DNA of 64,000 bases, from the IMG/VR virus record IMGVR_UViG_3300023179_000054, positions 28,408-92,407 of that record; one strand, 5' to 3'. The stretch is from a virus. Position 1 is the first letter of the stretch; the number at the start of each line of letters is the position of its first letter. The notes beneath the pieces are model-generated. The model ran no database searches and was not told the DNA's origin. It saw only the letters and a list, made by a program, of their open reading frames with translations. A program made the translations under genes and the position numbers. Positions 3,723 through 64,000 of this stretch are shown in pieces.

Positions 3723-3733
3723 CGTGCCACCTT

Positions 3734-6759: not shown

Positions 6760-6786
6760 GGCCGCTCCTTTGGTTAGAAGGCCTAT

Positions 6787-6793
6787 TATTTAT
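6787..6793 (-). promoter_or_regulatory. T4-type late promoter ATAAATA ahead of plcP-agt
   Basis: same motif class as in front of gp13, 16, 18, 19, 21 and 22. Confidence 0.55.
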
Positions 6794-6814
6794 CGCACCG
6801 CAACATTAACCGTT

Positions 6815-16430: not shown

Positions 16431-16483
16431 GTTTGTCTCCTTTTAAGCGAGATATAAAAACGATACCTTTCGGCTATCGTCAT
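16431..16483 (-). promoter_or_regulatory. ROSE-like RNA thermometer in the hsp20 5' UTR
   Basis: minus strand ACGATAGCCGAAAGGTATCGT hairpin, then UCUC-G-CU-UAAA-AG-GAGA pairing over the SD with a bulged G. Confidence 0.65.
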
Positions 16484-16486
16484 AAC

Positions 16487-16516
16487 ATTATATAGTAATT
16501 GTCATACGTTTGTCAA
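16487..16516 (-). promoter_or_regulatory. sigma70-type promoter of hsp20 (TTGACA-18-TATAAT)
   Basis: consensus hexamers read directly. Confidence 0.65.
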
Positions 16517-16917
16517 CCTATTCTCCAGTTTGTACCATCAGAATATACAGGTGTTGAACCACCTCCACCACCGGATACGATACCTCCGTAATTACTGGAA
16601 ATATTTCCATTAGCATCCGCTACAGTCATGTTAGAACAATCTACAATAAATGCCCTTGTTCCTCGACCAACGCCAGATGCGGAAGGTAATCCTGATGCCA
16701 AATAATTATTGGTATAAAGTGTATTAGTATTTAATGAAACACAATAAACTTTACCATTAGCATCAACACTAAATTCGGAAGTTCCATTTACACTAAGATT
16801 AATAAGTCTTGAATTTGTATTAGCACCAAAAGGAGCAGCCACATTCATTCCAATACCTGTATAGGCATTACCTGTGTCAACCCATGATGCTGTTAGATTT
16901 GCTATTGATACTGTCAT
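16513..16917 (-). CDS. putative virion structural protein
   Basis: Gly/Ser/Asn-rich; C-terminal LPSA...G.RAF..D...PVYSDGTNWRIG resembles phage fibre C-termini. Confidence 0.55.
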   Translation of the reverse strand: MTVSIANLTASWVDTGNAYTGIGMNVAAPFGANTNSRLINLSVNGTSEFSVDANGKVYCVSLNTNTLYTNNYLASGLPSASGVGRGTRAFIVDCSNMTVADANGNISSNYGGIVSGGGGGSTPVYSDGTNWRIG

Positions 16918-17609
16918 AATGTCACCACTGATGCTGTTAGGTTCATAGTTGGATAATAATCTTCGTATGTTTGTAAAGTAATATAATCACCTGTATCCGT
17001 TACAATAGCATTAGTAACATCGGATAATGCTGGATAAGCATCCAATCGGCTATCAACATACACAACGGTTGTATATGTATATCCTGATGTTTGTCCTACT
17101 AATGTTTGACCCGGTGATACAGAAACTCCTGATGTTAGATTGCCGATAGTTGCTACTGCGGCACCTCCACCAACTTGAGTGAAACTCATTACGGTGCCCA
17201 TAATCTGTTGTCCTATGGCAACCAACTCACCAACTTGTAAAGCACCAAATCCACCACCCATTAAGTTTTGCATGATACCAAGTCCGGCAGCCATACTACC
17301 TTGACCTATTCTAACATTAGGTGAACCACCAATTGGAATAGGAAACCCTTGAACATGAGGTATAATACCTAAAACGTCAGGTGCTGCTTGACTTATAATA
17401 GCAGGAATGGCAGGTATGCCACCAATCATTACATTATGAGATAAAACATTAATAAGCATACCCAAAAGATTATGGGTATCTCTATCACCTTCTAATGCTG
17501 GTACCAGATTATTGATAAGAACTTTTGTCGGTACACCTAATCCAGGCACGGTGATACCACCACACATTCTTAATCCAAATTGTGCTACAAGGTGAATTGG
17601 AAAAGTCAT
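16914..17609 (-). CDS. PAAR-like (gp5.4-like) spike-tip protein with C-terminal extension
   Basis: RMCGG.T, VLINN..A.EGD..H, NVMIGG, PH and GSPNVRIG repeat pattern. Confidence 0.55.
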   Translation of the reverse strand: MTFPIHLVAQFGLRMCGGITVPGLGVPTKVLINNLVPALEGDRDTHNLLGMLINVLSHNVMIGGIPAIPAIISQAAPDVLGIIPHVQGFPIPIGGSPNVRIGQGSMAAGLGIMQNLMGGGFGALQVGELVAIGQQIMGTVMSFTQVGGGAAVATIGNLTSGVSVSPGQTLVGQTSGYTYTTVVYVDSRLDAYPALSDVTNAIVTDTGDYITLQTYEDYYPTMNLTASVVTL

Positions 17610-18268
17610 GCTTTACTTTTTCCTGTTTTCTTAGTTGGCACCTTAGGCGGCGCCTTTGGTGGAAGTTTAGGTGGCAATTTAGCAGAAGGTTTAGTCTTAC
17701 GATATGAAACCATCTCTTTCATATCTTTATTCTCTGGTACATTAATAATAATGGTTGAACCTTCGGAAGAAACACCTGTTGAACCCATACCACCTGTGCG
17801 GTTAGTCTTTACACCAGGTCTTGCTGCGGATTCTACGATAGAATACTTAACGTACTCGACCAATTCGGCCTGTGCGATACGGTCACCACTACTGATAACA
17901 ATCTGGTTCTGTGAGATGTTATGAACCAGAACCATTACCTCTTGAACGTAATCGGAATCAATAACACCTTCAGCATTAGCAAGAACGAGGCCTTGCTTTA
18001 AAGACATGCCTGAGCGGGCGTGGAGGCGCACGGAGTATCCCTCCGGAATATCCATGATGATACCAGTAGGAACAGCAATACGGTCTCCAGGTTGAATAAC
18101 AATCTGGTTATTCATAGGTCTTTTAAAGGGCTTATTAGTTGCTGTAAAACCTTCGTATGTGTTATTATTATAACCTTGGAAGGACAAGTCGAAGCAAGCC
18201 GATTGTGCGGTTTGTTTTACAGGAAGTTTAACCTGAGGATGTAATCTAAAAAGTTTCAACGTAGTCAT
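17606..18268 (-). CDS. dut: trimeric dUTPase with Lys/Pro-rich tail
   Basis: ACFDL, ARSG, GVIDSDY, GDRIAQ and RTGGMGSTG motifs. Confidence 0.93.
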   Translation of the reverse strand: MTTLKLFRLHPQVKLPVKQTAQSACFDLSFQGYNNNTYEGFTATNKPFKRPMNNQIVIQPGDRIAVPTGIIMDIPEGYSVRLHARSGMSLKQGLVLANAEGVIDSDYVQEVMVLVHNISQNQIVISSGDRIAQAELVEYVKYSIVESAARPGVKTNRTGGMGSTGVSSEGSTIIINVPENKDMKEMVSYRKTKPSAKLPPKLPPKAPPKVPTKKTGKSKA

Positions 18269-21915: not shown

Positions 21916-22568
21916 TTTGTTTCCTGAGCGATGAAATACTTTAGATTGCCGGCCTTATTAACAAACTTGGCAAAGGCACCAATCTGTAGTTCAACATCAT
22001 AATCATCAGGAATAAGTTTAAGGTTCTCGCTCTTGAATGTAGCAATAAAGTCCTTACCAGCATAATCACCGATCTTTGTAGAACCATGGTTGGACGTGTC
22101 ATTTGCTTTCTCATGGATCTGAAGCAATAGGGCACCATCCTTACCAACTACAGATAGATGTGGAAGGTTATTCATTCTCGCCAAAGTTAATAGACGGGAA
22201 AGAGAAGCATTAGCCAAGGTAAATGAAACATCAACATTCTTGATTGTTAGTTCCTTATCGGCAGGCGGTGTGATAATAAGGTTAGGTGAACAAGCAAGGT
22301 AAGTCAATGTGAAATCACCCTCGGTCATAGATACAGAATCCTTACCGAATGAGATTTCAGGATTCTTTAGTGTAGTAATATTACCGAGAAACTGGTTCAG
22401 GTCATAGATACCGAACTGTTGTGGAATATCATCTTCAAGAGTTGCCTCAAGTAGAATGGAACGTTCCGATGACATGGTCTTTTGAACTTTGCCAGCATTA
22501 AGAACAACGCCACTATTAATGTTAGAAAAGTTTTTAAGAACCGTTAAGGTATTTTCACTAAATTTCAT
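21912..22568 (-). CDS. gp45: sliding clamp
   Basis: MKFSENTL.VLKNFS.IN, FGIYDLNQFL and ENLK...DY. Confidence 0.95.
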   Translation of the reverse strand: MKFSENTLTVLKNFSNINSGVVLNAGKVQKTMSSERSILLEATLEDDIPQQFGIYDLNQFLGNITTLKNPEISFGKDSVSMTEGDFTLTYLACSPNLIITPPADKELTIKNVDVSFTLANASLSRLLTLARMNNLPHLSVVGKDGALLLQIHEKANDTSNHGSTKIGDYAGKDFIATFKSENLKLIPDDYDVELQIGAFAKFVNKAGNLKYFIAQETK

Positions 22569-22584
22569 ATTATACTCCTTATAT

Positions 22585-23178
22585 TCACAGTGTATGCATT
22601 ATTTTATATTGTTTTTCATGTTGTGTCAAGATGATTTTTACATTCTCTTTTAGATCGTCTTTTGTTCCTTCGTTATGAATAACAAAATCTGGATCATAAT
22701 TGTTCCAAGCTGTCTCTGATATATGCATCTTAGAAATTTCTTCTGGAGAAGGATCATCACCTCGTTTTACACGAATGAGTATGCCGCCGGCACTCCGAAT
22801 AAAATCAATTTCATTAGGAAAACGGCAGTCGGTGATAACCACATCTTCATATCCGTGAATACGTTTTTCTAATGCCGCAATCCAGATGTTATCTGCGATT
22901 CCATGCCGACATGCTTCTGTGCCAAATTTTTGTAGGATTAATCTTGGTGTTACTTCATAACCGAGTTTATGTGACCACCAAACATCAACTCTCTCACGGA
23001 AGGCCCGTGAGGCATTCGTGTCACCTTCTAAAAGGCCTCGCGGCCACAGGAAGATACCTGCAACCGCGTCCTTTAGAGCATCAGCAAAGGCAAACTTTTT
23101 ATAACCATGTTCTCTTTCGAGAATATCACCTACTGTGCCTTTGCCGGATCCTATGAAACCGACAACGCCGATTATCAC
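22585..23178 (-). CDS. gp1: deoxynucleoside monophosphate kinase
   Basis: GFIGSGK, FADALK, R..LQ.FGTE, DCRF.NE and HISE. Confidence 0.92.
   Translation of the reverse strand: MIIGVVGFIGSGKGTVGDILEREHGYKKFAFADALKDAVAGIFLWPRGLLEGDTNASRAFRERVDVWWSHKLGYEVTPRLILQKFGTEACRHGIADNIWIAALEKRIHGYEDVVITDCRFPNEIDFIRSAGGILIRVKRGDDPSPEEISKMHISETAWNNYDPDFVIHNEGTKDDLKENVKIILTQHEKQYKIMHTL
22601..22629 (-). promoter_or_regulatory. sigma70-type promoter TTGACA-17-TAAAAT for the gp45 operon, inside the 3' end of the kinase gene
   Basis: hexamers and spacing read directly. Confidence 0.6.
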
Positions 23179-23981
23179 CGCAAATTACCGCTCAATGCTG
23201 CTACTGCGGGAAGATCGCCTTGGAATCCATATGTACCAACGTGGGTCGTCTTCATCCATGGGCACAACCAAACTTTCATACCAATTGCTCTGGCATTTTG
23301 ACAGAACATATAATCTTCTGAAAGATAACGATGTGAGGCAGGATCAATTACCGTATCAAAGTAAGCATGAATATAACGTGTGCCATCAAAGTTGGCCTGA
23401 CCAACGTGGTCTGGCTTATAATGAAGGTGTGGATATTCTTCAGCATATTTCTCGAATACTTCACGTTTTACCATCATGAAACCTGTGCCAATTTCCATAA
23501 CCTCAACTGGTTCGGTTACCTTGAATGACTTTGTACCAGGAACAGGATTAAAAACGAAGTCGCCTGTAACACCATCAAGCATACCAGGATTAAATTCAGG
23601 ATTTTCAGCATTACGCTTAACGGCATTAACAATATTATTCCAGTTAATTGATTTCTTAGGATAAGGGCCGCCGATGATATCACGGTCAAGTGCCAATAAT
23701 GCTAAAACATCTTGTGGATTAAATTGAATGTCGGCATCGATGAATAGTAGATGGGTACAACCAGAACGGAGGAACTCATCAACAAGATAATTTCGGGCGC
23801 GGGTAATTAGGGACTCATTAAAGATAAATGAGAAACGGCATTCCATGCCATATTGGATACATGTTGCTTGAAGGTCGAGGCAGGCTTTAGAATACAAACC
23901 GAAACACTGGCCTCCATAACAAGGTGTTGCTACAAATAATTTTTTTGTTCGCAATTCTTCGGTTGAAATTTTAATTTCCAT
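23175..23981 (-). CDS. conserved phage glycosyltransferase-like protein
   Basis: ATPCYGG, RARN, LFIDADI (DxD), GTGFM and LSEDY.FC; likely start MEIK at 23981. Confidence 0.7.
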   Translation of the reverse strand: MEIKISTEELRTKKLFVATPCYGGQCFGLYSKACLDLQATCIQYGMECRFSFIFNESLITRARNYLVDEFLRSGCTHLLFIDADIQFNPQDVLALLALDRDIIGGPYPKKSINWNNIVNAVKRNAENPEFNPGMLDGVTGDFVFNPVPGTKSFKVTEPVEVMEIGTGFMMVKREVFEKYAEEYPHLHYKPDHVGQANFDGTRYIHAYFDTVIDPASHRYLSEDYMFCQNARAIGMKVWLCPWMKTTHVGTYGFQGDLPAVAALSGNLR

Positions 23982-26672: not shown

Positions 26673-26980
26673 CCTCTAAATGGTTTGTAAACAGACTTGT
26701 TTTCCTTCTTCTTCTTTTTATTGTAAGCCTTTTTGATTTCCTCAGGGTATGTAAACAAGCACAGGTCGGCACTCGTACCTTCCCAAGGTTCCCACCGTTT
26801 TACAAGTGATCGACTAACCTGCCTATCATATGCGTCAGTACCATACGTTAGATAAAATAAACCAAACTTATTCATAGGATACCATATACGGCGAAAGCGC
26901 CAATAGTTGGTTTCATAGTTATCATCCAACCATCTGGCATACCGGCCATGGTCTCGATCAGGAGATTTATATTGTTTCAT
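26669..26980 (-). CDS. hypothetical protein
   Basis: 103-aa aromatic/basic ORF between the VWA and AAA genes. Confidence 0.6.
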   Translation of the reverse strand: MKQYKSPDRDHGRYARWLDDNYETNYWRFRRIWYPMNKFGLFYLTYGTDAYDRQVSRSLVKRWEPWEGTSADLCLFTYPEEIKKAYNKKKKKENKSVYKPFRG

Positions 26981-29178
26981 TATCCAACCTTCTTTGCTTG
27001 GCCTGCTACACGATCAACAAACTGGCGGAGCAGGACACGATTTACAGTTTTCTTTTGTGCGAATTTAGAGAATGCCTTAGCCATTTGTCGAGCGGTATTC
27101 TTTTTAGTATTATCAATAGCCAATTCATTCTTGGTATCTTTTAGTGCCTTAGAGTCAATAACATAATATTCATCATACCCGGCACTCTTGACAGGATAGA
27201 ACTTGTTATCGTTCCAGAACTTTTGGATTTGTTTCAACTTGTCCCAATTATCTCTAAGATTAAATTGGGTAGCAAACTTATTGAAAGAATTTCCAAAGAG
27301 GAAGAAACCAACAAGATTACAACCGGTGCGATCTTTTAGGATACGCAATAGAGTGTTGGTGTTATCAGCATAATTACCATAACCCCAAGGATACCAATCA
27401 TATGTTTTACGTGTTACTTTATCAACATAGAAATAACGACGGTTTTCACGGAACTGGCGTGGTGTTGTTTCATTCTTTATACCTTCACTTGGATTGGAGT
27501 CACCATCTGTAAGGAAGATAGTGTTCACGATTTCAAGTTTATTCTTAGCACGGAAGTCATCAACCAGTTTTGGCGCAATCATAATCGCATGATTAAGTGG
27601 CGTGCCACCCATACCATCAGTTGCCAACCAGTTGCGATTAGCGGCACACCAAAGCATAGTCATAGCAAAGTTCAATTCCTGAATATTCATTCGTGAAGAA
27701 AGGAAGTTGCGTAGAACGAGGTTTGAAGCACCAATTACATTTTCTTGACCGATATATGTAAATGGATTATCACAACCGTTATCTTTGAAGGCATACACCT
27801 CGAAAGGCACTCCGATTTGTTTACAGAACAAGCAAAGCGAAAACAGTTGCTTCATGGTATCTTTCAAGTTCCATTGCATAGAACCAGACCAATCAAGGAA
27901 CATAATAAAACCGTGGTTCTTACCTTTTGGAATATTAGTAAGACGACGGAAGATATCATCATTATACTTGTAAGAGTGGAGTTTATTTGTATCAATAACA
28001 CCAGTCTTGGAGATATTGATACGGGCATATGTTTCAGCAGCCTTCTTAGCCTCAAACTCTTTTACAAGGAAAGAGATTGTTTCTTTCTCTTTCATTTTCC
28101 ATTCGGTCATTTGTTTACGGCAAAACTCAAAAACATCTTTTGTAATATAACCACGGCCAACCTCATGGTTGTGCCAATCTTCAAGGACTTTCTTATAGTC
28201 GTGAACAGCCTTGTCCCAGTTTACCTGAGGCATATTTACATAGACGTAGGTTGAATTTTCGTCTTTAACAATATCTTGGGATTTTTTCTGCCATGTTTCA
28301 TCAGTTTCAGAAACAGGAGCATTTTCAGGCATAAAGTCACCGGCACCAGCACCAACATCTGCCTGGTTGGATTGAATATCACCTTCGCCGTTTAGTGCGT
28401 CGGATTTTTCTTCACCTTCACCGGAATCGGTTTCATTTTCATCTGACGGTTCTTCGCTTTCACCGTCATCATTATTAAAATTACCGTCGTAATTATCATC
28501 AACGTCGGAATCATTTTCTTCTCCTTCTTCGGACTCGATTAGATCAAGTTCCATTGTTTGTTGGTTTTCTAGTTTTTCTTTACAGTAGATATAGATTTCT
28601 TCTGTAAGACCAACAACTTCCTCAAATGTCTCAAGACCTTCAGCCCGTTTTAGGAACACTCGTTCTTCGGGTGAAAACTCCATTTTATAGTTAATACTAC
28701 CACCTTTGAAATAAATATTTAGGCGGTCAATAAAGTTCATGGTATTGATATCACGCTTGGCCGTGCCAAAGAAATCACGTTCTACTAATTCACGGTATCC
28801 GATAAGATAGTTTTTACGTGAACCAGGATAGCGGCGCTTTTGGCGCTTATCGATACGGGCATCCTCGACACAGTTGAGAAAACCTTTAATTGTTGAAGCA
28901 AGTTGTTCGGAAATCTTTTCGTTAGGGAAAACACGGGCAGCAATACCTTCATATGCTTTTTTATATGTGTCGGCATCAGGAGTATCCAGAGCATGGCCCG
29001 TCTCATGGACAATAAGGAGGTCTTGGAGATCATTTGAGATGCCTTGCCAAATAGGCAACATCAATACACGGCCTTTAAGGTCAAACATGGCGGTCTTAAT
29101 GCCTGGTGTTTGCTGAACCGTAATATTTTCCGTAGCAAGTAGTTTTGCTAGGAGAGACGTTTGATTTCCGTTAGACAT
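26980..29178 (-). CDS. CobT-like protein: HExxH metallopeptidase domain, acidic linker, VWA domain
   Basis: HETGH, N..ED.RI, MIDAS DWSGSM, GGTPL and LTDG; likely start MSNG at 29178. Confidence 0.85.
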   Translation of the reverse strand: MSNGNQTSLLAKLLATENITVQQTPGIKTAMFDLKGRVLMLPIWQGISNDLQDLLIVHETGHALDTPDADTYKKAYEGIAARVFPNEKISEQLASTIKGFLNCVEDARIDKRQKRRYPGSRKNYLIGYRELVERDFFGTAKRDINTMNFIDRLNIYFKGGSINYKMEFSPEERVFLKRAEGLETFEEVVGLTEEIYIYCKEKLENQQTMELDLIESEEGEENDSDVDDNYDGNFNNDDGESEEPSDENETDSGEGEEKSDALNGEGDIQSNQADVGAGAGDFMPENAPVSETDETWQKKSQDIVKDENSTYVYVNMPQVNWDKAVHDYKKVLEDWHNHEVGRGYITKDVFEFCRKQMTEWKMKEKETISFLVKEFEAKKAAETYARINISKTGVIDTNKLHSYKYNDDIFRRLTNIPKGKNHGFIMFLDWSGSMQWNLKDTMKQLFSLCLFCKQIGVPFEVYAFKDNGCDNPFTYIGQENVIGASNLVLRNFLSSRMNIQELNFAMTMLWCAANRNWLATDGMGGTPLNHAIMIAPKLVDDFRAKNKLEIVNTIFLTDGDSNPSEGIKNETTPRQFRENRRYFYVDKVTRKTYDWYPWGYGNYADNTNTLLRILKDRTGCNLVGFFLFGNSFNKFATQFNLRDNWDKLKQIQKFWNDNKFYPVKSAGYDEYYVIDSKALKDTKNELAIDNTKKNTARQMAKAFSKFAQKKTVNRVLLRQFVDRVAGQAKKVG

Positions 29179-53414: not shown

Positions 53415-55085
53415 TTACAGTCTTGGATCCCATCTTTCGTCTATAAAGGATAAACCATTCTTATCGGCATTAGACCATAAATCACCATTATCATCTTTTT
53501 CCACTATATCATTAAGACCATTATCAATAAACCCAAAGGGTGTGTGGTCGACGTCCAGAATATCCATTTGCTCTTTCGATAGAACAAAACGGATGTCATT
53601 AGAAACCGTCTCTTTAAATAATCTTTGAGAGGTTAACCACCCAAAATGAACCAAGGTCATAGCAAGGTCGTCATTACTACCTTCTTCGGCCATAAATGTT
53701 TTCTTGGTAGCCGAGAATGATGATAGTTCCATGATAGTATCAGCATCATTTATAATCAGTTTGTCATTTTCTACAAGTGCCTTCAAATTAGCACAACCAA
53801 TCATTTTAGTCTGCGCGGACATTTTAAGACCGAAAGCTAACTTATTCTTACCTGCCGCAAAACCACCGGAAGCCTGTGTTCCTTGTTTACCTTTTTGTTG
53901 AAACTTTAAAAGGTTATCGTAGTTCAATTCAAAATGAAGAATATCCGCAACCTGTAGACCGATAGAGTTGATTTCTACAAGGACAAAAGCATCATTAAAA
54001 CGTTTTGCTACGGAGTATATAACAGTAGGTAATAACAGAGGTGCTATTTCGTTGTTTCTATATTTAGCAACCTGCCTATATGGTATTTCTGAAACATCAA
54101 ACACCGAGAATGTGGAGTAATCAAGTCCCTGGCCTTCTGCCACATCTACGCAAATGACATAGGTTCTTTTTGGTTCTGGTAGTTCATAGACATCCAAATT
54201 GTTTTGAGATTCAATAGGCGATTTAAAAGATAAAGTCCTGAGTTTAGCGCCAGAGATAAGAGTATTGGTAGAACCAAGGAATTCACAACCAAACTCTTGG
54301 TCGAACTGACGTTGGCTGGTGTTTCTAATAGTTTGCTCAGCCCACTTTTGGTCTCTGCCTGGCACCATCGACCAGTGGATTTCAATAGGTTTGTAATCTG
54401 ACCTACCCTCGGTCGCATCCATCCACATCTTATAGAAAAGATTCATTCCATTTGGTGTAGAAACGATAACAACCTTAGAACTTTTACCAGAAGAAATGGT
54501 GGGATAGGTAGAAGCAAAGAATTCTTCAGCTATGTTATTGGGAACGAACGCAAACTCGTCCAAGAAAATAATGTTGAACGACATACCACGAACGGAACTA
54601 CCTGAGGTAGAGTCGGCAAGGACTCTCGAACCATTAGCAAGGTGAATAGAACCTTTGTTCCATTCTTTGATACCTTGCTTGAGAAACATAGGTAGATACT
54701 CAAATGCCAGTTTCAATCTCTGTAGGATTTCACGGGCGGTAGGCGCACGGTTTGCCAAGATGGCAATCATCATGTTCTCTGAAAATAGCACCTGGTGTAG
54801 CAAATATGCCACACTTGTAGTCGTTTTTCCAACCTGTCGTGGGAGTTTACAGATAGCAAAGCGGTTGTGATAGAAGGTGTTTAACATCTCTTCTTGAAAG
54901 TCCCACATCTCAAATGGCATAAGGCCTTTATCGATGTTGACGATTTTCATATATTTCTTGGCAAAGTATACCGGGTCATCCGCACATTTTAGATATTCAT
55001 CTAATTCTTTTTGTGTGAATGAATGGCGGTACTGTTCGCTTGGTAGATTAGGATTGTTCTGGTAGCTGAACGGTAATCGCGCCAT
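53415..55085 (-). CDS. gp17: terminase large subunit
   Basis: RQVGKTT, LDEFAFV, STPNG.N.F, DVAEG...DYS and DDL.M. Confidence 0.98.
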   Translation of the reverse strand: MARLPFSYQNNPNLPSEQYRHSFTQKELDEYLKCADDPVYFAKKYMKIVNIDKGLMPFEMWDFQEEMLNTFYHNRFAICKLPRQVGKTTTSVAYLLHQVLFSENMMIAILANRAPTAREILQRLKLAFEYLPMFLKQGIKEWNKGSIHLANGSRVLADSTSGSSVRGMSFNIIFLDEFAFVPNNIAEEFFASTYPTISSGKSSKVVIVSTPNGMNLFYKMWMDATEGRSDYKPIEIHWSMVPGRDQKWAEQTIRNTSQRQFDQEFGCEFLGSTNTLISGAKLRTLSFKSPIESQNNLDVYELPEPKRTYVICVDVAEGQGLDYSTFSVFDVSEIPYRQVAKYRNNEIAPLLLPTVIYSVAKRFNDAFVLVEINSIGLQVADILHFELNYDNLLKFQQKGKQGTQASGGFAAGKNKLAFGLKMSAQTKMIGCANLKALVENDKLIINDADTIMELSSFSATKKTFMAEEGSNDDLAMTLVHFGWLTSQRLFKETVSNDIRFVLSKEQMDILDVDHTPFGFIDNGLNDIVEKDDNGDLWSNADKNGLSFIDERWDPRL

Positions 55086-55524
55086 CTTCTTCTTTCTTTT
55101 TCTTTATGGCCGACAATAACTCGGCTGCCGAACCAACAAAGACTGCTTGTTCTACATTAATGTTGCCGGCATCTGGATTCTTGACACGAGGATCCGAATC
55201 CTTGGCAGGTTCTTTTAAATCCTTAGTCATCTTCTGAAGATTATATAGGTCTTTAGTCGTGTCTCCAACGGTCTTAATTAGTGTGGAAACGACCTCGAAT
55301 CCTCTTGCTGATTCGTTTTGTCTTGCTATCGTTGATATTTCTTCAATAGCATCATTACCTTTTTCGATAAGATTGCGAAGAACCTTACGAGCAAGGATAT
55401 AATCTTCCTCTTGGTCCGTTAGACCACTTGGAGGAGGTTCATAAGAAACTACCTCCTTCTTTGGTTCAGGAGGTGTTTCATGGTCGATGCCTAAAGCATC
55501 TGAAAGATTTTTATCAAGTCCCAT
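55048..55524 (-). CDS. gp16: terminase small subunit
   Basis: DY..AR..L..LI..G, R.FEV...LIK and FVGS..EL. Confidence 0.9.
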   Translation of the reverse strand: MGLDKNLSDALGIDHETPPEPKKEVVSYEPPPSGLTDQEEDYILARKVLRNLIEKGNDAIEEISTIARQNESARGFEVVSTLIKTVGDTTKDLYNLQKMTKDLKEPAKDSDPRVKNPDAGNINVEQAVFVGSAAELLSAIKKKKEEDGAITVQLPEQS

Positions 55525-55549: not shown

Positions 55550-56725
55550 TTAGCATTTTTTTAATATGATGTTGGAAATGATATCGGCATTTCCAGAACC
55601 AGAAACTTTATATTTTAATTCTTCATTCTTTGTTAGTATTTGGTATTTACCAATTTTATCTAACAATATCTCCAAATAAACGGTAAGTAGTTCTTTGGAT
55701 ATAGCAAGAGCAATACAGGCATGGACTCCATGACCCCATGCGAGATGTGCCGCATTATCTCTATATATATCAAATTCATCTGGATTTTTAAATTTATTAG
55801 GGTCTCTATTGGCCGACTCAAGACATGCTGCTACTCTATCACCAGGTTTTAAATTGATATTATGTAAAGTAATTTCTTTTAAAACGGTTCTGGAAAATCT
55901 TCCTGTTGATGTATTAAACCTTAGCGACTCGTTTACTGCTAATGGAATAAGTGATTTATCTTTCAATAAAATATCAAGTTGATTTTCCCTGTATAAATCA
56001 AGGGTTAAAAACTGTAATGCGGATATTAATGAACCAGCACCAGATACCATAGGCCCACCAATCATCAAAGAAAACTCATCCATTTTCTTTGGATTATTAT
56101 TCAAGTATTCGTTATAGATTCCAGGGCCAGTAGAAGGTATTTTCTTTCTTGTGGTATCTACTATTTTTTTGTAATTTTGTAATACCTTTTCAAATTTATC
56201 TGTAAAATTCTCAATAGTATCCTTAGATGTGGAAAAAGGATTATACTTTTGTGATTGTATAACAACATCTTTCACAAAAGGTTTATAGAGAGGAAGGTTT
56301 ATAATTTCTGCTGAGGCCCATGCCGCCAATTCTTCGGTCAATTCCGATATATTTAATTCGATTTTACCATCAAAATGTTCTATAGCCTTTTCAGCAAATA
56401 GTTTAGATATCCTTTTTATATTGTCTTTGCTATAGGCATTTTTAACAACATTCTTTAAATCGTTATGAATAGGATTATCACTCGCACCTAACGTAGTGCC
56501 AAATCTACGTGGGTCTTCTATAAGTAAATTACCTTTTGCTGATGAGAAAATATCTGGGTTATTAAGAATAAGATAAACATCTTCATATCGGGTCATAACA
56601 TATAGATTATACTTTTCACTCCAATATGCCGTTTCAGCATTTCGGAGTTCTTCGTATATTTTATGTTTATTTAATAACCATTCATTAGATTGAGGTTCAA
56701 ATTTTTCCATTAACAATATTTTCAT
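55550..56725 (-). CDS. cytochrome P450
   Basis: D.P.H (C helix), ESLR (ExxR), SANRDP..F..PD.FDI.R and heme loop HLAWGHGVHACIA. Confidence 0.92.
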   Translation of the reverse strand: MKILLMEKFEPQSNEWLLNKHKIYEELRNAETAYWSEKYNLYVMTRYEDVYLILNNPDIFSSAKGNLLIEDPRRFGTTLGASDNPIHNDLKNVVKNAYSKDNIKRISKLFAEKAIEHFDGKIELNISELTEELAAWASAEIINLPLYKPFVKDVVIQSQKYNPFSTSKDTIENFTDKFEKVLQNYKKIVDTTRKKIPSTGPGIYNEYLNNNPKKMDEFSLMIGGPMVSGAGSLISALQFLTLDLYRENQLDILLKDKSLIPLAVNESLRFNTSTGRFSRTVLKEITLHNINLKPGDRVAACLESANRDPNKFKNPDEFDIYRDNAAHLAWGHGVHACIALAISKELLTVYLEILLDKIGKYQILTKNEELKYKVSGSGNADIISNIILKKC

Positions 56726-57206
56726 ACTCTTGTATTAGTTCACGAAATCTCTTTTTTTGAGCGGCGGTTAGACCGTCAAATGTATTAAAATTTATATCTT
56801 CATAATTTATATTATTGTTTCTTATAAAATCACCAAATACTCTTTCAAAGACTTGATAATTAATCCATTTTCCTACACTATCGGCCCAAAAATAATCTTT
56901 TCCATCATCAGGTTTAGGAGTAAAATTGTTTTCTTTATCGTATACCGTATCTATCTCTGCGATTGGCACCTCATCTATAACATACTTATCGGTCCAACCA
57001 TAGTTTGTTTTTACATATTCGGTATGAACGTGCTTTTGAAATATACTTGGTTCTGGTCTTGGTGAACGAGTAAATCTTTCAAAACCTTTTGGTGGATTTT
57101 CTGGGTCAAAGTTAGGATAAAACATACGAAGGTTCAATCCCATAATAGGATGACCTACTGCTTTACCTCTTTCTACTTTAATATATAATTCTTCTGAATC
57201 TTCCAT
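56697..57206 (-). CDS. hypothetical protein, possibly fibre-associated accessory
   Basis: P.PDDGK.Y.W....G.W motif; sits between the Gly-rich adhesin and the P450. Confidence 0.6.
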   Translation of the reverse strand: MEDSEELYIKVERGKAVGHPIMGLNLRMFYPNFDPENPPKGFERFTRSPRPEPSIFQKHVHTEYVKTNYGWTDKYVIDEVPIAEIDTVYDKENNFTPKPDDGKDYFWADSVGKWINYQVFERVFGDFIRNNNINYEDINFNTFDGLTAAQKKRFRELIQEYENIVNGKI

Positions 57207-57215
57207 TATTATTCC

Positions 57216-57875
57216 CTATGACCACGAAATGTTTACGTAACCGTTTTGACCGGCAGTAGCATTTTGAGGTGCGGCTGCTCCGCCAGCACCAACAACTACA
57301 GTAATATAAGTATTCCACACAGGATAACCAGATGTTGATAGAAAAGTCCATGACTTTAGTGTTTTTCCACCGGCGCCGCCTGGATATCCATTACCTGAAC
57401 CTTGTTGAGGCCAACCACCGTTTCCACCAGCACCGCCTCCACCTACTGTTACCGTCCCACCTGAACCGCCGCCGTTTGTGCCTGTATGACCGCTACAGTT
57501 GCCGCCGCCATATCCACCACCATCAGCAATAACAGAACCGAATTGACTATAACCTCCATTACCACCATCATAACCGCAGTTTCCATATCCGTAAATGTTG
57601 TGATTATCACCACCACCGCCACCACCTCCGGCAGCAACTACTTCTACTGAAAAAGATTGATAGGCAGGAACTAAAAATGAATATGTGCCTGGTGTAGTTA
57701 ATGATATAGAACCTGGTAGAGGTTTACCATAGGCATCGGAAATTTTAACAGCACCTTTTAAATCACCTAACAAATAACGAGTATCGGCATCACCGAGTCC
57801 AATTAGTGTATTAGAACCTTTAGTTATTTGTGCTATATCACCAAGTGATATTATTCCAGAATTAGCTAATGGCAT
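57216..57875 (-). CDS. glycine-rich tail-fibre tip / adhesin-like protein
   Basis: MPL..SG.IS..D N-terminus, polyglycine runs, VVG.GG and G.NGYV.ISW C-terminus. Confidence 0.7.
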   Translation of the reverse strand: MPLANSGIISLGDIAQITKGSNTLIGLGDADTRYLLGDLKGAVKISDAYGKPLPGSISLTTPGTYSFLVPAYQSFSVEVVAAGGGGGGGDNHNIYGYGNCGYDGGNGGYSQFGSVIADGGGYGGGNCSGHTGTNGGGSGGTVTVGGGGAGGNGGWPQQGSGNGYPGGAGGKTLKSWTFLSTSGYPVWNTYITVVVGAGGAAAPQNATAGQNGYVNISWS

Positions 57876-59247
57876 TTTTTAATCTATCAACTTCATCTGA
57901 CAAATGCTTTATTGTCTCAATTAAGAGTGGAATAACTTTTTCATAGTTTACGGCCAAACTGCCATCTTTTCTTACAACTACTGCTTCTGGTAGAACCTCT
58001 TTAATTTCTTGTGCTATCAAACCAACGTCGTGTTTACGGATAAAATATCCATCTTCACCACCTTGAGATTGTATCCATTCATCTGACCAATCAAAGAAAA
58101 CACCATTAAGAGATTTTAATTTTTGTAAAGCATCAGGAATATTCACCACATTTTCTTTAAATTTTATATCTGATGAATAATATGCGTATATGTTATAATT
58201 AGAATAAATGTTTCCATCTACATACAATCCACTTGGAGATGTGACTGAAACAAAACCACTTATTGATTTGATGTCAATATAACTACCGTTTGCGGTTATG
58301 CGGCCATTTTCATTAATTCCAGAATCATCATAGAAAAATAAACTTCCAGAATTTGTAGTAGTATTGATATGAACAGGTTTGTTTAAACTAACAAGGCTAT
58401 TGCCAAAAGTGTAATTTCCGGAATTGAGGAATGTAGTACCATATACGTAAACATTACCTTCAGCAGTAAATAGACCTGTCGCAGTACCATTATTAATAGG
58501 AAGTTTTGTATTTGCTAAAGCAAAAGCGGAATTAACGGCTGCGTATGCCGAATTTGTTTTGTAGTAAACTGAATTGGTAATACCAAAAGAAGCATTTGTG
58601 ACGTTGTATGCCGAATTGGCAACTCTGTAAGAAGATGCTGTATTTACAGAAACGCCGTTGGCAAAATCAAAAGCAGCTGCCGCATTTACTATCGCACTTG
58701 TAGAATAGACATAATCAACATTTGCCAAATCATATGCCTGGCCCGCAAGTTGGAATGCCAAGTTTGCTTGTTCGAAAGCAGCGGTACCATTCGCAATTAT
58801 AGCCAAAGCAGTAGGATTAAGTGTATTTGCTAAGTTAAATGCCGCATTAGCAACTGTATATCCAGAATTGGTCAGAGTATAGACAGCATTTGTTCTAACG
58901 ACCGTGGAATTTGCCATAGCAAATGCTGCGGCTGAATTTACTACCGCACCATAGTATAAACTATTGACGGTATTTGCCATCGTGAAAGCGGCATTCATAG
59001 CAGTATATTGAGCATTAGAAAAATCGTATGCTTGATTAGCGGTATCAAATGCCATAGAACTTAACGCAAGTAGTTCACCGTCGGCGGTGTCAACAGTAAT
59101 AACAAGGCTTGCTATATTTGCTTCATTATTGGAAACACCACTAAAAAGTTCTGCGATGTCTTCATTAATCTTAATAAACGCCGATCTAAGAGTATCGCCT
59201 GTGCCGTCGTTTGCTACTGTACCTGTGTTTACTGTGTTCTGTGTCAT
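57862..59247 (-). CDS. tail fibre: gp9/gp10-like N-terminus, Ala/Asn repeat shaft, C-terminal S74 intramolecular chaperone
   Basis: GT.ANDGTGDTLR.AF.KIN, repeated AF..AN/AY..AN, SSDIKFKEN and G.IAQE....PEAV. Confidence 0.85.
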   Translation of the reverse strand: MTQNTVNTGTVANDGTGDTLRSAFIKINEDIAELFSGVSNNEANIASLVITVDTADGELLALSSMAFDTANQAYDFSNAQYTAMNAAFTMANTVNSLYYGAVVNSAAAFAMANSTVVRTNAVYTLTNSGYTVANAAFNLANTLNPTALAIIANGTAAFEQANLAFQLAGQAYDLANVDYVYSTSAIVNAAAAFDFANGVSVNTASSYRVANSAYNVTNASFGITNSVYYKTNSAYAAVNSAFALANTKLPINNGTATGLFTAEGNVYVYGTTFLNSGNYTFGNSLVSLNKPVHINTTTNSGSLFFYDDSGINENGRITANGSYIDIKSISGFVSVTSPSGLYVDGNIYSNYNIYAYYSSDIKFKENVVNIPDALQKLKSLNGVFFDWSDEWIQSQGGEDGYFIRKHDVGLIAQEIKEVLPEAVVVRKDGSLAVNYEKVIPLLIETIKHLSDEVDRLKNAIS

Positions 59248-59251
59248 CGTC

Positions 59252-60256
59252 CTACTCTGTTTCTGGCCATTCCGTTATATTTATATCATAGCCATAATCA
59301 TCTGTCGGTTCTGCCGTTATTGGGTCTGGTGTAATCTGAATTGATGCTAACTTTAATGGTGATACATTAAATGAATGTATCTGACAAGTACCATTGGTTG
59401 ATACTGCGTGAACGTAGTTATTAACTTTAAATTGACCTTGAACTGCACCTAATGTTAATCTATCCAAATCAGAATTATAATCGATAATAACACCATATGC
59501 GGTTGCTGTCTTATAACTATCACCTTGATAAACCATGTCGTTTGACTTGAACACACCATTAGCATTTGCCGTATTTATCTTGGTGATGTATGCGGAACTT
59601 AAATGAAGGTCGTTATATACATTTGCGTAAACGGTACGAATAATCTTTGGATAAGAAATCGGGCCATAGTAATACATCTTCATGGTAAAGTTTAGAGTCC
59701 AATTAACATATCTTACCGTATCAAAATCACCCTCATACTGGATATCATTTGACACGTTATTAAGAATGACTGGAACATCTTTAATGAATCCAAGGTCAGG
59801 AATCATATTCGTTGCTACCGTGAAATCTGGATTAAAGAATGGTAAAATCTGTTCCACAATCTGCGTACCGTCATCGATATTTCGAGCATAGATGTTTAAT
59901 GAAAAAGTTATATCGTAAGGAACACCCATATAGCAAGATGAAACATGAGTTGTAGTGTTTGCCTTAGCAGCCTTTAATAATGAGTTTTGTTTTCTTGTAG
60001 CATCATAAGAAACGCCTGTAATCTCAAAACTCATTCTTGGTAAAACTGTCTGTAATTGACGTAGTAAATCCGGGTCGGAGAAAATACGAGTAATCATTTT
60101 CTCTTTTGGAGCATAGATGATAGGCACCAGAAAACGGTTAGTTTCTTTACCAGTCTGGTCGTTCTTTCTAACAATTTTTATATCATCAAAAAGACGTCCA
60201 AAAAGGACAACTGCTTTACGGGTTAGTTGATGATAAAAATGTGAATTACCTAACAT
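59252..60256 (-). CDS. gp15: tail sheath stabilizer / completion protein
   Basis: FYH...RK.V..FG.LF, VP..Y.PKEK, LPRMSFE and QI.EQILPFF.P. Confidence 0.95.
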   Translation of the reverse strand: MLGNSHFYHQLTRKAVVLFGRLFDDIKIVRKNDQTGKETNRFLVPIIYAPKEKMITRIFSDPDLLRQLQTVLPRMSFEITGVSYDATRKQNSLLKAAKANTTTHVSSCYMGVPYDITFSLNIYARNIDDGTQIVEQILPFFNPDFTVATNMIPDLGFIKDVPVILNNVSNDIQYEGDFDTVRYVNWTLNFTMKMYYYGPISYPKIIRTVYANVYNDLHLSSAYITKINTANANGVFKSNDMVYQGDSYKTATAYGVIIDYNSDLDRLTLGAVQGQFKVNNYVHAVSTNGTCQIHSFNVSPLKLASIQITPDPITAEPTDDYGYDINITEWPETE

Positions 60257-61149
60257 TATGGTGTTCCAAAAGGATTTGTTTCAGTCAAATCCAAATATGG
60301 ATCGGCTGCGACTTTTAATGGTTCATTATCAATTAAATCATAACTTGAGAAATTGGTTCTATCGTCAAATGAGACTAAGGTACGCATCGTTGTAGAGGTA
60401 TTACCAATGACGTTGGCACTTGCTACAAATTGACCGACGATGTTATTAATTAGTATTGTATTGCTACTGGACGTCCAGGACTCAACGGTACCATAAGCAT
60501 AAGCACCATTCCACCTATTATTGCTAGATTGAAATACAATTTCACCAATAGAGTAATTTGTCGCGGATGATCTTGCGGTACCAACAATAAGTTGGACATT
60601 ATAACCGTTATCAGTTCCAACCGCATCGACCTCTTCAACACCTGTATTGATAGGTTCTTGAGATGAACGGAAGGCCTCACATCTCATTTCATATACGTAT
60701 GGTAATCTTTTACCGATGGAATGGAACATAAGTTCCTGTTCGATAAACTTAATCTCAAACATCTTGTGAAGGACAGGAATATACACAAGGTCGCCTTCTT
60801 GAGGTCTTTGTCGTATGGAACCTGGTAGCAACTGTCTAAAAGACCTACGTGAAAGGACGAAGTTGGACGTGTCCCTGATCTCTAATCCGAACTTGGAGAA
60901 GAAATCACCTTGCCCCTCGAAACCTTCTACATTTGAGAGATAGGCCTCAATAAGGTATGCTTTGTTAAAGGCACTTTTGGAATACTCACCGTAAATCATA
61001 TCACCTTCGTCAAAAGATTCCCTAGGAATATAATAGATGTTATGACCCATAATTTGGATGCTCTCAACAATAAGGTCTTCCATTAACAAATGTTCGTTGT
61101 TAATTCTTTCTTGCGATGGAAAATTGTTAAAGTATCCGTTGACTGCCAT
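60256..61149 (-). CDS. gp14: neck protein
   Basis: EDL..ESI...G...YYIPR, SKFGLEIRD, RP.EGDL.Y and E.NPFG. Confidence 0.95.
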   Translation of the reverse strand: MAVNGYFNNFPSQERINNEHLLMEDLIVESIQIMGHNIYYIPRESFDEGDMIYGEYSKSAFNKAYLIEAYLSNVEGFEGQGDFFSKFGLEIRDTSNFVLSRRSFRQLLPGSIRQRPQEGDLVYIPVLHKMFEIKFIEQELMFHSIGKRLPYVYEMRCEAFRSSQEPINTGVEEVDAVGTDNGYNVQLIVGTARSSATNYSIGEIVFQSSNNRWNGAYAYGTVESWTSSSNTILINNIVGQFVASANVIGNTSTTMRTLVSFDDRTNFSSYDLIDNEPLKVAADPYLDLTETNPFGTP

Positions 61150-61150
61150 T

Positions 61151-61900
61151 TTATCCTACAAGGAATCCAGGAGGTGCTTGGTATGTATTCTTAATCTCGT
61201 CCATGACTTCTTTAATTTCACCAACTGCTTCATCAAAGAGTTGCTGACCGTTCATGGTGATGCCGCCTGGTAGTTGCATACCACCATACTTTTTAAGGTT
61301 GGCACCCCATTGCTTCTTAATAAGAGCAGTTCCAAGGGCCTTCAGCATACGGTCATTCCAGAATAGTGTGAACTGGCTTGGATCGGTTACGATGGTACCT
61401 TCTGTAATAATCCACTCACCCTCTTGAATATCGGTATTCCAATCCCAATCGATATATAAACGTTTGTTAATCTTATTAAATCTTACTGGTGTTTCACCAG
61501 AGAATAACATGTCAAGGGTTCTTAGATGCTGCATGGTTAGAGCATAATTGACATAAGAGGTCGATGAAAGATCCCAAAGGTCGTTAAGACGCAATTGGTA
61601 GCGAAGGTCAAAAAAGGTCATGGCCTGATTGTTGCCACCTACAGGAAAAATGCGAGTGGCACCATTTACACCATCACCTAACTGGACGTATCCGTTGGCG
61701 ATGTCTGTGGAGGTTATTTGATGTTTTAGGTAAGTTCTTTCGGTGCCGTCATAATGGAATTCTTGGAAAAACTGGACGGCTATGGTGATGCAATCTTCGG
61801 CCTGCACATCATCTACGTTAACCTTGATGACGGGTTCACCAAGTTGACGAAAACATAATGATTTGAATTCTTCTCTGGTCTCGGGTGCTGATTGTGCCAT
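61151..61900 (-). CDS. gp13: neck protein
   Basis: LG.PVI.VNV...Q, FH.DG, FD.RYQ.RLND and QWG.NL.K...QLPGG. Confidence 0.96.
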   Translation of the reverse strand: MAQSAPETREEFKSLCFRQLGEPVIKVNVDDVQAEDCITIAVQFFQEFHYDGTERTYLKHQITSTDIANGYVQLGDGVNGATRIFPVGGNNQAMTFFDLRYQLRLNDLWDLSSTSYVNYALTMQHLRTLDMLFSGETPVRFNKINKRLYIDWDWNTDIQEGEWIITEGTIVTDPSQFTLFWNDRMLKALGTALIKKQWGANLKKYGGMQLPGGITMNGQQLFDEAVGEIKEVMDEIKNTYQAPPGFLVG

Positions 61901-61940: not shown

Positions 61941-62546
61941 TTATCGGAACTTAGGCCCTTCCACCCATATCACAATAGACTTACGAATACCTGTGAGAAC
62001 TGGTTTGACCCTATGTATAATAAAAGAAGGAAAGGCAATAATTTTACCTTTATGTATATCAATTGTTTGTGGATTACTTCCTATATCAATTTGGAATTCT
62101 CCGCCTGTAAAATCTTTTCTCGGTTCGGATAAAAGCATTACTAAAGATAACTTTCTGGTCGATCTTTCCGGACCCTCAGTTATGGTATTTAAAATACTGT
62201 CCATATGCCAGTCATATTTTCCTTCATTTTCAGAATTATAAACTGTATATTGAAAACTATCATAACCGTATAAGTCAAAATTATAATAATCATTATTTAA
62301 GGATTCTATCACATAATTAAATTTATCAAATATCCATGAATTCGATTTATTTTTATAATAAAAATTTAATTTTGATTTTCTAATATATTCACAATTTTCA
62401 CCATCACCAACAGTTGTAGATGGTTTTAATTCATCTTGGGAACAATAATCTTCAAGTTCCATTAATTCTTTTTCTGTAAAAGCACCATCCCACCAGACAC
62501 TACTATAAATTATTCTTCTTTTTTCAAAAGGATCATTTGAAAGCAT
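61941..62546 (-). CDS. prolyl-4-hydroxylase-like 2OG-Fe(II) oxygenase
   Basis: QYT.Y, Y.WHMD, RKLS, F.GGE and FPSF..H.V.PV..G.RKS.V.W..GP. Confidence 0.88.
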   Translation of the reverse strand: MLSNDPFEKRRIIYSSVWWDGAFTEKELMELEDYCSQDELKPSTTVGDGENCEYIRKSKLNFYYKNKSNSWIFDKFNYVIESLNNDYYNFDLYGYDSFQYTVYNSENEGKYDWHMDSILNTITEGPERSTRKLSLVMLLSEPRKDFTGGEFQIDIGSNPQTIDIHKGKIIAFPSFIIHRVKPVLTGIRKSIVIWVEGPKFR

Positions 62547-62569: not shown

Positions 62570-62938
62570 TTAATACATATTTGATACTGTATTTGATATT
62601 TCAAAACTATTTGTAATATTTACTAAATTATATACGTTAGACATATTATATTGTGTATTTGATAATTGAAGTTGTTCTTTTACATATAATAATTTTACCG
62701 GAGCAGATGATTTTATAATAGTAATTACATCATTAGTAGAAGGATTGCTGTTATTGTAAAAATTTAAATTATAATCGGTTCTACATCTTTCGGGATATCC
62801 ATTTGGTGTCATAACAATATCACCACTGAAAGTAAAGTGTGTCGCAAGACTTTCTTCGGTTATAATATCTGTCCAATATCTAACGACAAATGTATGTTCC
62901 GATTCATCAACAGAAAGAATTCTATAATTAATTTTCAT
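62570..62938 (-). CDS. hypothetical protein following the Gly-rich fibre gene
   Basis: likely start MKIN at 62938; AT-rich. Confidence 0.65.
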   Translation of the reverse strand: MKINYRILSVDESEHTFVVRYWTDIITEESLATHFTFSGDIVMTPNGYPERCRTDYNLNFYNNSNPSTNDVITIIKSSAPVKLLYVKEQLQLSNTQYNMSNVYNLVNITNSFEISNTVSNMY

Positions 62939-62951
62939 ATTATATTTACCT

Positions 62952-64000
62952 TTAGATTTTAGGCCCGTTAATTGTGCCTGCATTTATATATGTGATATTT
63001 CCTGTACCACTAACACCAGAACCTTGTGGTCCTGCCGCACCTGTAGCACCAGTTGTTCCTGCTGAACCTGCTGCACCAGGAGCACCTGTAGCACCTTTGG
63101 TTCCTGTTCCTCCAGCTGGTCCTGAAGTGCCAGTAGCACCTTTGGTTCCTGCTGGACCGGTTGAACCTGTTGCTCCGGCGCCGCCGCCGCCGTGGCCTGA
63201 TTCACCAGGCTGGCCAGAAATACCTACGTTTCCTCCATGTCCCCCGTGACCGCCGTGAACATCACATCCTGGGTAATGTCCGTGAATATGACAACCGGTA
63301 TAACCTGGTTCCTGACAATATTCATGTCCTGCATGACCGCCCCAGTCGCCGCCTCCGCCGCCGCCGCCGTAAATACCATGTCCTGGTTGTGCGCCAGATC
63401 CTGCAGGAGATCCTCCACCGCCACCGCCGTGTCCGCCGTGAACATGCGATCCACAAGCTTGAGCAAAGTATCCTTGGCCTCCGGCGCCGCCGCCGCCTGT
63501 TCCGCCTGGGCCACCTGGACCTGCTGTTCCGCCAGGTCCACCAGGTCCTGCTGGGCCTGCGGCGCCGGCCGGCCCGCCTGATCCACCTGGTCCTGCTGGG
63601 CCTGCTGCGCCACCAGGGCCGCCTGTACCTCCAGGTCCGCTGGCGCCGCCTGTTATTGTTGTAGTATTGTTTAATAAAATTTTAATACCTGAAACTGCGT
63701 CTGCTTGGAAAGAAATACCGCCCGTTTGTCCTGTTCCACCTGTGCCACCTGGTTGTCCGCTACTTCCTGCACCACCAGTACCGCCTGTGCCACCTGGTTG
63801 CGATGTACCGCCTGTGCCACCAGGACCGCCTGTTCCTCCTGTGCCACCAGGGCCGCCTTTGCCGCCTGTGCCACCTGAACCGCCGTTAGCATTACCTCCT
63901 GCCCCATATACTCCTGTAGTTCCAGTAGCACCTGTGGTTCCTGTGGTTCCTGTAGTTCCGATTGTTCCCGCAGCACCAGTTGTTCCAGTAGTGCCTGTAG
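62952..64000 (-). CDS. collagen-like / polyglycine fibre-adhesin protein (5'-truncated by the window edge; absent from the ORF track)
   Basis: manual reading gives an open frame of about 349 codons to TAA at 62952: G-T-T and G-x-y collagen repeats, G-G-x runs, a His/Cys-rich loop, ending NAGTINGPKI. Confidence 0.85.
   Translation of the reverse strand, partial: TGTTGTTGAAGTIGTTGTTGTTGATGTTGVYGAGGNANGGSGGTGGKGGPGGTGGTGGPGGTGGTSQPGGTGGTGGAGSSGQPGGTGGTGQTGGISFQADAVSGIKILLNNTTTITGGASGPGGTGGPGGAAGPAGPGGSGGPAGAAGPAGPGGPGGTAGPGGPGGTGGGGAGGQGYFAQACGSHVHGGHGGGGGGSPAGSGAQPGHGIYGGGGGGGDWGGHAGHEYCQEPGYTGCHIHGHYPGCDVHGGHGGHGGNVGISGQPGESGHGGGGAGATGSTGPAGTKGATGTSGPAGGTGTKGATGAPGAAGSAGTTGATGAAGPQGSGVSGTGNITYINAGTINGPKI

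Follow-up and report, generated by a model that had tools for sequence, protein, structure and literature searches.

What does a cytochrome P450 do in the midst of the virion genes of a T4-like phage? The stretch of DNA analyzed here, called the window below, comprises 64,000 nucleotides (positions 28,408 to 92,407) of an IMG/VR contig of 92,407 bases, which is 54% complete by CheckV. On its minus strand, at 55550..56725, it carries a 391-aa ORF for a P450 of a phage-restricted clade. Phage P450s are all but missing from published surveys, which report no viral redox partners either, and the known viral P450s are those of giant viruses, of Ranid herpesvirus 3, and of Mycobacterium phage Adler (PMC9405906). 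The original prediction for this locus held that the enzyme acts on a protein substrate. In this article, we weigh that proposal together with several others and favor a different explanation, to which we assign a probability of roughly 0.55: the P450 would be an accessory late cargo monooxygenase of a phage-restricted lineage, acting on a small molecule.

The P450 Gene and Its Nearest Relatives

The sequence-identical database gene call begins at M6 (56710) rather than at the first ATG; most homologs begin at the equivalent position, and 56710 is the probable true start, giving 386 aa. The Pfam p450 model (PF00067) matches at 47.4 bits (cut-off 22.8) and covers only residues 262-355, the C-terminal third, whereas the comparison with solved P450s is full-length: 394 PDB P450 sequences match at E<=1e-3, the best being 8fbc (E 1.4e-39, residues 11-352). 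The original reading of a full-length 391-aa P450 with an ESLR motif, a meander, and a Cys ligand is borne out by 37 aligned homologs, in which the E-R-R triad (E266-S-L-R269, the ExxR motif, plus R322 of the meander) is invariant, as are C337, G331, and H335 of the Cys-ligand loop W330-G-H-G-V-H-A-C337-I-A. This loop has Trp in place of the usual Phe and Ala in place of the usual Gly after Cys+1. An AlphaFold2 model built with the 37 homologs has a pLDDT of 91.3 and a pTM of 0.92; a Foldseek search with it returns 8fbc first (TM 0.83), the best 500 matches are all P450s, and class-I bacterial P450s superpose at TM 0.81-0.84. Sequence and model together confirm what is predicted to be an intact, full-length P450.

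The window P450's best match in both sequence and structure, 8FBC, is P450-T2, a hot-spring metagenome enzyme 73% identical to CYP203A1 of Rhodopseudomonas palustris (PMC7780096; PMC11334723). CYP203A1 binds substituted aromatics, e.g., 4-hydroxybenzoate and chlorophenols (PMC7780096; PMC11334723), and P450-T2 accepts electrons from ordinary ferredoxin systems (PMC7780096). CYP203A and the phage clade are alike in their length of ~390 aa, their class-I fold, the Ser at the alcohol position of the I-helix, and the B-C loop SSAxGNL...RxGxTLGxSDxPxH. They differ in that CYP203A is cellular and keeps the I-helix acid (A-G-x-E-S), whereas the phage clade is found on viral contigs alone and does not keep it. 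By the convention of P450 nomenclature (at least 40% identity for a family and at least 55% for a subfamily), the assignment is a divided one: CYP203A is the nearest relative, but the clade lies outside CYP203, with a structure-based identity of 24% to 8fbc and an identity of 32% to P0135, a CYP203A-like representative (E 1.5e-104 to 8fbc), both below the family threshold. CYP199A4 (a 4-methoxybenzoate demethylase), CYP125/142, CYP153A, CYP109, and BioI also match in fold (TM 0.81-0.84), with C-terminal similarity at E ~1e-23; these class-I enzymes have the canonical acid-Thr pair, are 17-23% identical to the window P450, and have substrate-binding residues that are not demonstrably conserved in it.

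The Late Gene Block around the P450

The gene order of the contig is that of a T4-like phage: the gp14/gp13 region, gp15, an inserted block (S74 fibre, Gly-rich protein, 169-aa protein, and P450), and then gp16, gp17, gp18, gp19, and gp20. Two ORFs are labelled by position and order, namely a neck protein as gp14 (60256-61149, with a match to T4_neck-protein) and a neighbor without a Pfam match as gp13 (61151-61900). The tail sheath stabilizer gp15 (59252..60256, minus strand, 228 bits) is a conserved gene that bounds the inserted fibre block on its upstream side. On the same strand follow a 461-aa tail fibre (57862..59247) with a C-terminal S74 intramolecular chaperone domain (Peptidase_S74, 48.4 bits, and PHROG tail-fibre families), a 219-aa Gly-rich protein (57216..57875), and a 169-aa protein without Cys (56697..57206), the stop of which overlaps the P450 start. 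The Gly-rich protein, matched by Gly_rich_2 at 16.8 bits (below the cut-off) and weakly by a PHROG minor-tail family, is kept beside the fibre gene in relatives and is presumed to be a distal fibre tip or receptor-binding protein. The small terminase gene gp16 (55048..55524, minus strand) is the conserved boundary downstream, so the placement of the P450 between a tail-fibre module and the small terminase was read correctly at the outset. Because TerL is 54-56% identical to that of marine cyanomyoviruses, and likewise to that of pelagimyophages, the source phage is a separate lineage of that group.

A T4-type late-promoter-like motif, TATAAATA, lies on the minus strand at 59278..59285, 31 nt upstream of the fibre start. 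It is the sole minus-strand exact match in the 64-kb window, where the total count of the motif is not above chance; it is thus suggestive only, and may be the start of a late transcription unit that includes the P450. The 169-aa gene, which ends ...AAA ATT TGA, shares 14 nt with the P450 gene if the latter starts at M6, or 29 nt if it starts at the first ATG, and no promoter-like or terminator-like site beyond chance was found between the two, both sigma-70-like and terminator-like sequences being at chance level there. The P450 would thus be co-transcribed with, and translationally coupled to, its upstream neighbor, and would be made late in the cytoplasm of the infected cell. That the gene is AT-rich and overlaps the one before it had also been seen from the start: its GC content is 0.313 (GC3 0.23) versus 0.380 for the window, the ninth lowest of 76 ORFs. 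Across the whole fibre block, GC3 is 0.18-0.25 versus 0.32-0.41 in the flanking core genes.

A second group of genes stands close by. A P4H-type 2OG-Fe(II) oxygenase (PF13640, 52 bits; 61941-62546, minus strand) is followed by a 137-aa protein (62570-62983, minus strand) and by a Gly-rich ORF (62952-63998, minus strand) with a collagen-like C-terminus and a GC content of 0.59, which runs off the contig end, probably at an assembly break in the repeat. This trio is kept in relatives with and without the P450, and the oxygenase and the collagen-like ORF would make a plausible enzyme-substrate pair. Homology between the two adhesin/small-protein/oxygenase modules finds no support in their small proteins, those of 137 aa and 169 aa being unrelated. 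Outside the window, the contig carries three Trp_halogenase-family genes, at 16275-17888 (minus strand), 2167-3444 (minus strand), and 22457-23632 (plus strand) in contig coordinates, encoding 537, 425, and 391 aa, the largest matching at 341 bits. The stretch immediately before the window encodes a carbamoyltransferase (contig 26704-28146, minus strand, 185 bits) along with several 2OG-Fe(II) oxygenases. The halogenase-like genes, the P450, and the several 2OG oxygenases make up a set of aromatic-tailoring-type enzymes that is unusually rich for a phage.

A Lineage Found So Far Only in Phages

A word-indexed protein search with the P450 returned 484 proteins, of which the top 120 clusters are 52-100% identical to it and nearly uniform in length; clustered at 90% identity, the clade has at least 120 members. 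An exhaustive search of 1.84 billion representatives delimited a compact family, with about ten full-length representatives at 39-52% identity, then a gap down to 34% or less, where P0135 (32%) is followed by the general P450 pool. In a quick maximum-likelihood tree (IQ-TREE) of the family and 35 outgroup representatives, a branch of length 1.24 (SH-aLRT support 100) separates the whole family from the outgroup. No longer, redox-domain-fused members were found in the family, which is weak evidence.

An alignment-based scan of IMG/VR located 38 viral loci with a P450 of the clade, whereas 185,579 bacterial and archaeal species genomes contain no close homolog, the nearest being 23-37% identical. 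Of the 120 core members, 116 contain the two peptide patterns used in this cellular scan, as do about half of the deep representatives; with this coverage, the cellular absence carries weight for the core clade but less for the deepest branches (P0124-P0128 and P0131). As for a host-derived AMG, the close cellular homolog is missing, with nothing above 37% identity in these species genomes. The statement in the original prediction that P450s are rare in phages agrees with these observations: tblastn of the P450 against 50,697 deposited phage genomes gave no match, and PMC9405906 lists just Mycobacterium phage Adler. Megablast of the 10-kb region against the deposited phage genomes likewise gave no match, and no published description of the clade was found in the literature. 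Pairwise comparison with related loci gives dN/dS values of 0.06-0.22, the unsaturated pair L007/L008 having 0.09. In other words, the clade has been found so far only in phages, is distinct from cellular P450s, and is under purifying selection; neither the relaxed selection nor the restriction of homologs to host chromosomes that the original prediction named as counter-evidence is seen.

Three Genomic Contexts

On the basis of the IMG/VR loci, three genomic contexts of the P450 can be told apart. Context A (the window and L001-L013) has the order fibre, Gly-rich protein, 169-aa protein, and P450, mostly between gp15 and gp16; the exceptions are L009 and L013, where the same fibre/tip/169-aa/P450 block lies upstream of gp13-gp15. 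In context C (11 loci), a 97-aa protein, a small HExxH protein, the P450, and a 371-aa protein stand in the T4-like replication region of ~170-kb phages, with genes for ribonucleotide reductase and T4 RNase H. The HExxH protein (154 aa; L026 9531-9995, and homologs) is metallopeptidase-like (A-H-E-L-V-H), has no Pfam match, and is always directly upstream of the P450. In context B (10 loci), the P450 is surrounded by an enzyme cluster in ~350-kb jumbo phages, with a DesA-like fatty-acid desaturase, a fatty-acid-hydroxylase-like membrane protein, cupin-like proteins of ~200 aa, two families with the SGGxDS PP-loop motif (one of them repeated), and repeated ORFs of ~104 aa. One record of this context, G001, can be called a jumbo phage because it has 348,701 bases, is CheckV-complete, and carries a T4-type terminase. 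Most genes of the cluster (L030 4507-13147; also L017, L019-L023, L031-L034, and L038) are without a match in Pfam or NCBIfam; as a whole, it resembles a multi-enzyme pathway that has yet to be described. The ~104-aa ORF directly upstream of the jumbo-phage P450s was considered as a ferredoxin and ruled out: neither Pfam nor NCBIfam matches it, and it contains a single Cys.

In the tree, contexts A and C are sisters (support 99) and are nested among B and unplaced lineages; the P450 has therefore changed its address within phage genomes while being retained. No neighbor is universal across the contexts, and no relative of the 169-aa protein is detectable beside the P450s of context B or C. The structural neighborhood from which the original prediction started thus holds for context A and has no counterpart in B or C. 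These observations suggest that the clade has diversified inside large phages, both T4-like (~170 kb) and jumbo (~350 kb). The known viral P450s are isolated cases, from one phage or from eukaryotic viruses, whereas the clade described here spans T4-like and jumbo phages in three contexts.

A Variable Cargo Slot behind the Fibre Genes

Three close relatives of the source phage (L079, L080, and L081) have the same gene order, with gp13/15/17/18 at 77-79% identity, and carry fibre, Gly-rich tip, a 135-aa protein, and then gp16, without a P450. There is no P450 anywhere in G011, the record of L079 (164 kb, 94% complete). At L078, fibre, tip, and a full 170-aa homolog of the small protein are followed by a 521-aa AMP-binding enzyme (6527-8092) where the P450 would stand; at L012, the tip is followed by a 74-aa version of the small protein's C-terminal part, a 483-aa AMP-binding enzyme (3078-4529), and then the P450. 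In other words, the slot may contain the P450, an adenylate-forming enzyme, both, or neither.

The 169-aa protein is itself divided in these relatives: the 135-aa protein of L079-L081 has only the N-terminal half in common with it and ends in a different tail (L079 5980-6387), and L012 retains the C-terminal 74 aa (2861-3085), which suggests two independently swappable domains. Pfam and PHROGs assign no function to it. Its predicted structure (pLDDT 85.7) matches "phage tail assembly chaperone" models in a Foldseek search of BFVD (E 2e-5 to 2e-3, probability >=0.99, TM just 0.34-0.40), weak leads from the Atlas agree with this, and its position after the fibre/tip gene is that of chaperones. 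The modelled protein is probably a tail(-fibre) assembly chaperone. Distant relatives of it occur without any P450, and its affiliation is with the fibre and tip genes rather than the P450.

We take fibre, tip, and chaperone-like genes to be a structural unit with a variable cargo slot behind it; the P450 is one occupant of this slot, at the 3' end of the late tail-fibre block and before gp16. Because close relatives keep fibre and tip without the P450, the content of the slot varies, and the contexts differ, the P450 is optional accessory cargo, dispensable in close relatives, and probably not a component that builds the virion. Phage morons behind tail-fibre and fibre-chaperone genes may be comparable in position, variable presence, atypical composition, and swappable slot content; the cargo here differs in being a redox enzyme of a phage-specific lineage, not a host-derived conversion or exclusion gene. 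On the contrary side, the P450 of subclade A stays with the fibre/tip/chaperone block even where this block lies upstream of gp13-gp15 (L009 and L013), which could point to a functional link.

What the P450 May Act On

The enzyme is predicted to be a soluble, catalytically competent, class-I-type (bacterial-fold) heme-thiolate protein, and with less confidence we infer that it oxidizes a small, probably aromatic and/or carboxylate-bearing metabolite and not a virion protein. Three observations point to such a substrate: substituted aromatic acids and phenols are ligands of the nearest characterized relatives, CYP203A and CYP199A; the B-C loop (S-S-A-x-G-N-L...R-x-G-x-T-L-G-x-S-D-x-P-x-H) is common to P450-T2; and the other occupant of the slot is a carboxylate-activating AMP-binding enzyme. 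The assignment of the substrate class is weak, because the identity to CYP203A is only 24-32%.

The best of the alternatives, which we consider unlikely, has the P450 act during assembly on aromatic residues of the Gly-rich tip or the fibre, either hydroxylating or cross-linking them; the protein substrate originally proposed would be of this kind. The P4H-type 2OG oxygenase beside the collagen-like ORF, 5 kb upstream, would be a parallel; the fibre/tip/169-aa/P450 order is kept at two genomic positions; expression of the P450 appears to be late and coupled, with overlapping start and stop; and the Gly-rich tip loops carry Tyr, Trp, Cys, and His. However, the tip proteins of P450-less relatives have similar aromatic-rich Gly loops, and the close relatives at 77-79% identity, among them the 94% complete G011, keep fibre and tip and have no P450. 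The sister P450 clades, moreover, stand in replication and enzyme-cluster contexts without fibre genes, and the parallel with the 2OG module is weakened by the unrelated small proteins of the two modules. Cross-linking in particular, which the original prediction had named, receives no support from curated models: no peptide-crosslinking P450 model is reached, the ApyO model scoring 19 bits against a cut-off of 525. A protein of the virion is therefore not the substrate that these comparisons favor.

Quite unlikely, too, is a small acyl- or aryl-acid pathway in which the P450 works with the phage AMP-binding enzyme, the product being either free or placed on the tip, and of which the window would have kept the P450 half. 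The AMP-binding enzyme adjoins the P450 in L012 and stands alone in the slot in L078, but the two genes are apart more often than together, the slot of the window has no AMP-binding gene, and no carrier protein or acceptor was identified. A more far-reaching reading, which must be called distinctly doubtful, is that of an ancient P450 lineage of large aquatic phages, with a re-engineered proton-delivery site, in which the T4-like subclade, alone or with the adenylate-forming enzyme, would decorate the tail tip or a ligand bound to it. If this were true, tip decoration would be an enzymatic layer of host-range control without known precedent.

I-Helix Chemistry and the Source of Electrons

The I-helix acid-alcohol pair (A/G-G-x-D/E-T/S) is typical of monooxygenase P450s, and membership of the superfamily does not need it. 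The observation that the I-helix of the window P450 has no acid-Thr pair stands and extends to the whole clade. Its segment S228-G-A-G-S-L233 aligns with A-G-V-E-S-L of 8fbc, so that Gly231 takes the acid position and Ser232 the Thr position; in every one of the ~120 full-length members, the former is S, G, or A and the latter Ser. Among the nearest non-family P450 representatives, 82% have E/D at the acid position and about 18% have no acid. The clade-wide replacement of the acid implies that protons are delivered by a modified route; neither the chemistry nor the reaction can be read from this replacement, because about 18% of the nearest cellular representatives also go without it.

No feature of a peptide-crosslinking P450 or a peroxygenase was found in the window P450. 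Its I-helix (residues 217-246) contains no CYP152-type Arg-Pro and no Arg before R246, and no CYP152 entry is among its best 60 PDB matches. None of the curated NCBIfam functional subfamily models is reached; the best is that of the CDPS-associated P450, TIGR04538 (115.7 bits versus a cut-off of 500), and the TxtE model gives 78.8 (cut-off 500).

As to electrons, Fer2, flavodoxin, and NAD_binding_1 have no match on the whole 92-kb contig, and the sole signal for Pyr_redox_2 comes from a Trp-halogenase-family protein outside the window, namely from its FAD-binding N-terminus. Also outside the window is a BFD-like [2Fe-2S] ORF of 64 aa (contig 22213-22407, minus strand; 27.9 bits versus a cut-off of 26), which lies head-to-head with one halogenase-like gene. 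A BFD-like ORF just below the threshold also occurs in G011, and the complete 349-kb, P450-bearing G001 has no match to BFD, Fer2, flavodoxin, Pyr_redox_2, or NAD_binding_1. As a dedicated partner the BFD-like protein is thus ruled out: G011, which has no P450, carries it, whereas the complete G001 does not. The absence of a ferredoxin or reductase from the window, remarked on in the original prediction, is therefore real, and its suggestion of host redox partners is also the one that fares best: because no phage-encoded partner co-varies with the P450, host ferredoxin or flavodoxin systems are the likeliest source from which the enzyme would draw its electrons. It should be mentioned that a partner could lie outside the available 54% of the source phage genome. 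The known viral P450s, too, have no recognized virus-encoded redox partner.

These data bear on a further explanation, namely that the enzyme is not a monooxygenase or is driven by peroxide, either using H2O2 or catalyzing a rearrangement or a coupling in which redox partners do not serve to activate O2. The acid is missing in all ~120 members and no phage redox partner was found, both of which speak for it. The alcohol position is nevertheless always Ser, as in the CYP203A relatives, the acid is also lacking in about 18% of the nearest ordinary P450 representatives, the CYP152-type Arg-Pro pair is missing, and P450-T2 takes its electrons from ordinary ferredoxin systems; we regard this explanation as improbable, behind those discussed above. 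Finally, although the gene is AT-rich relative to core genes, the idea that it is a decaying or non-functional passenger, or a bacterial gene introduced by an assembly or binning artefact, is effectively refuted by the strong purifying selection, the invariance of all its catalytic motifs, the same synteny on many independent viral contigs, and the failure to find a cellular source in 185,579 species genomes.

Implications

The position of a gene inside a morphogenesis cluster does not imply a role in virion assembly, and in this respect the first reading of the locus has to be corrected. By the 40% identity rule, the clade would count as a new CYP family, one that appears to be confined to large phages. 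The presence/absence variants, such as the window and G011, together with the AMP-binding occupants of the slot, are natural comparisons, and the P450 of this clade offers a concrete handle on the oxidative chemistry that phages add to infected cells.
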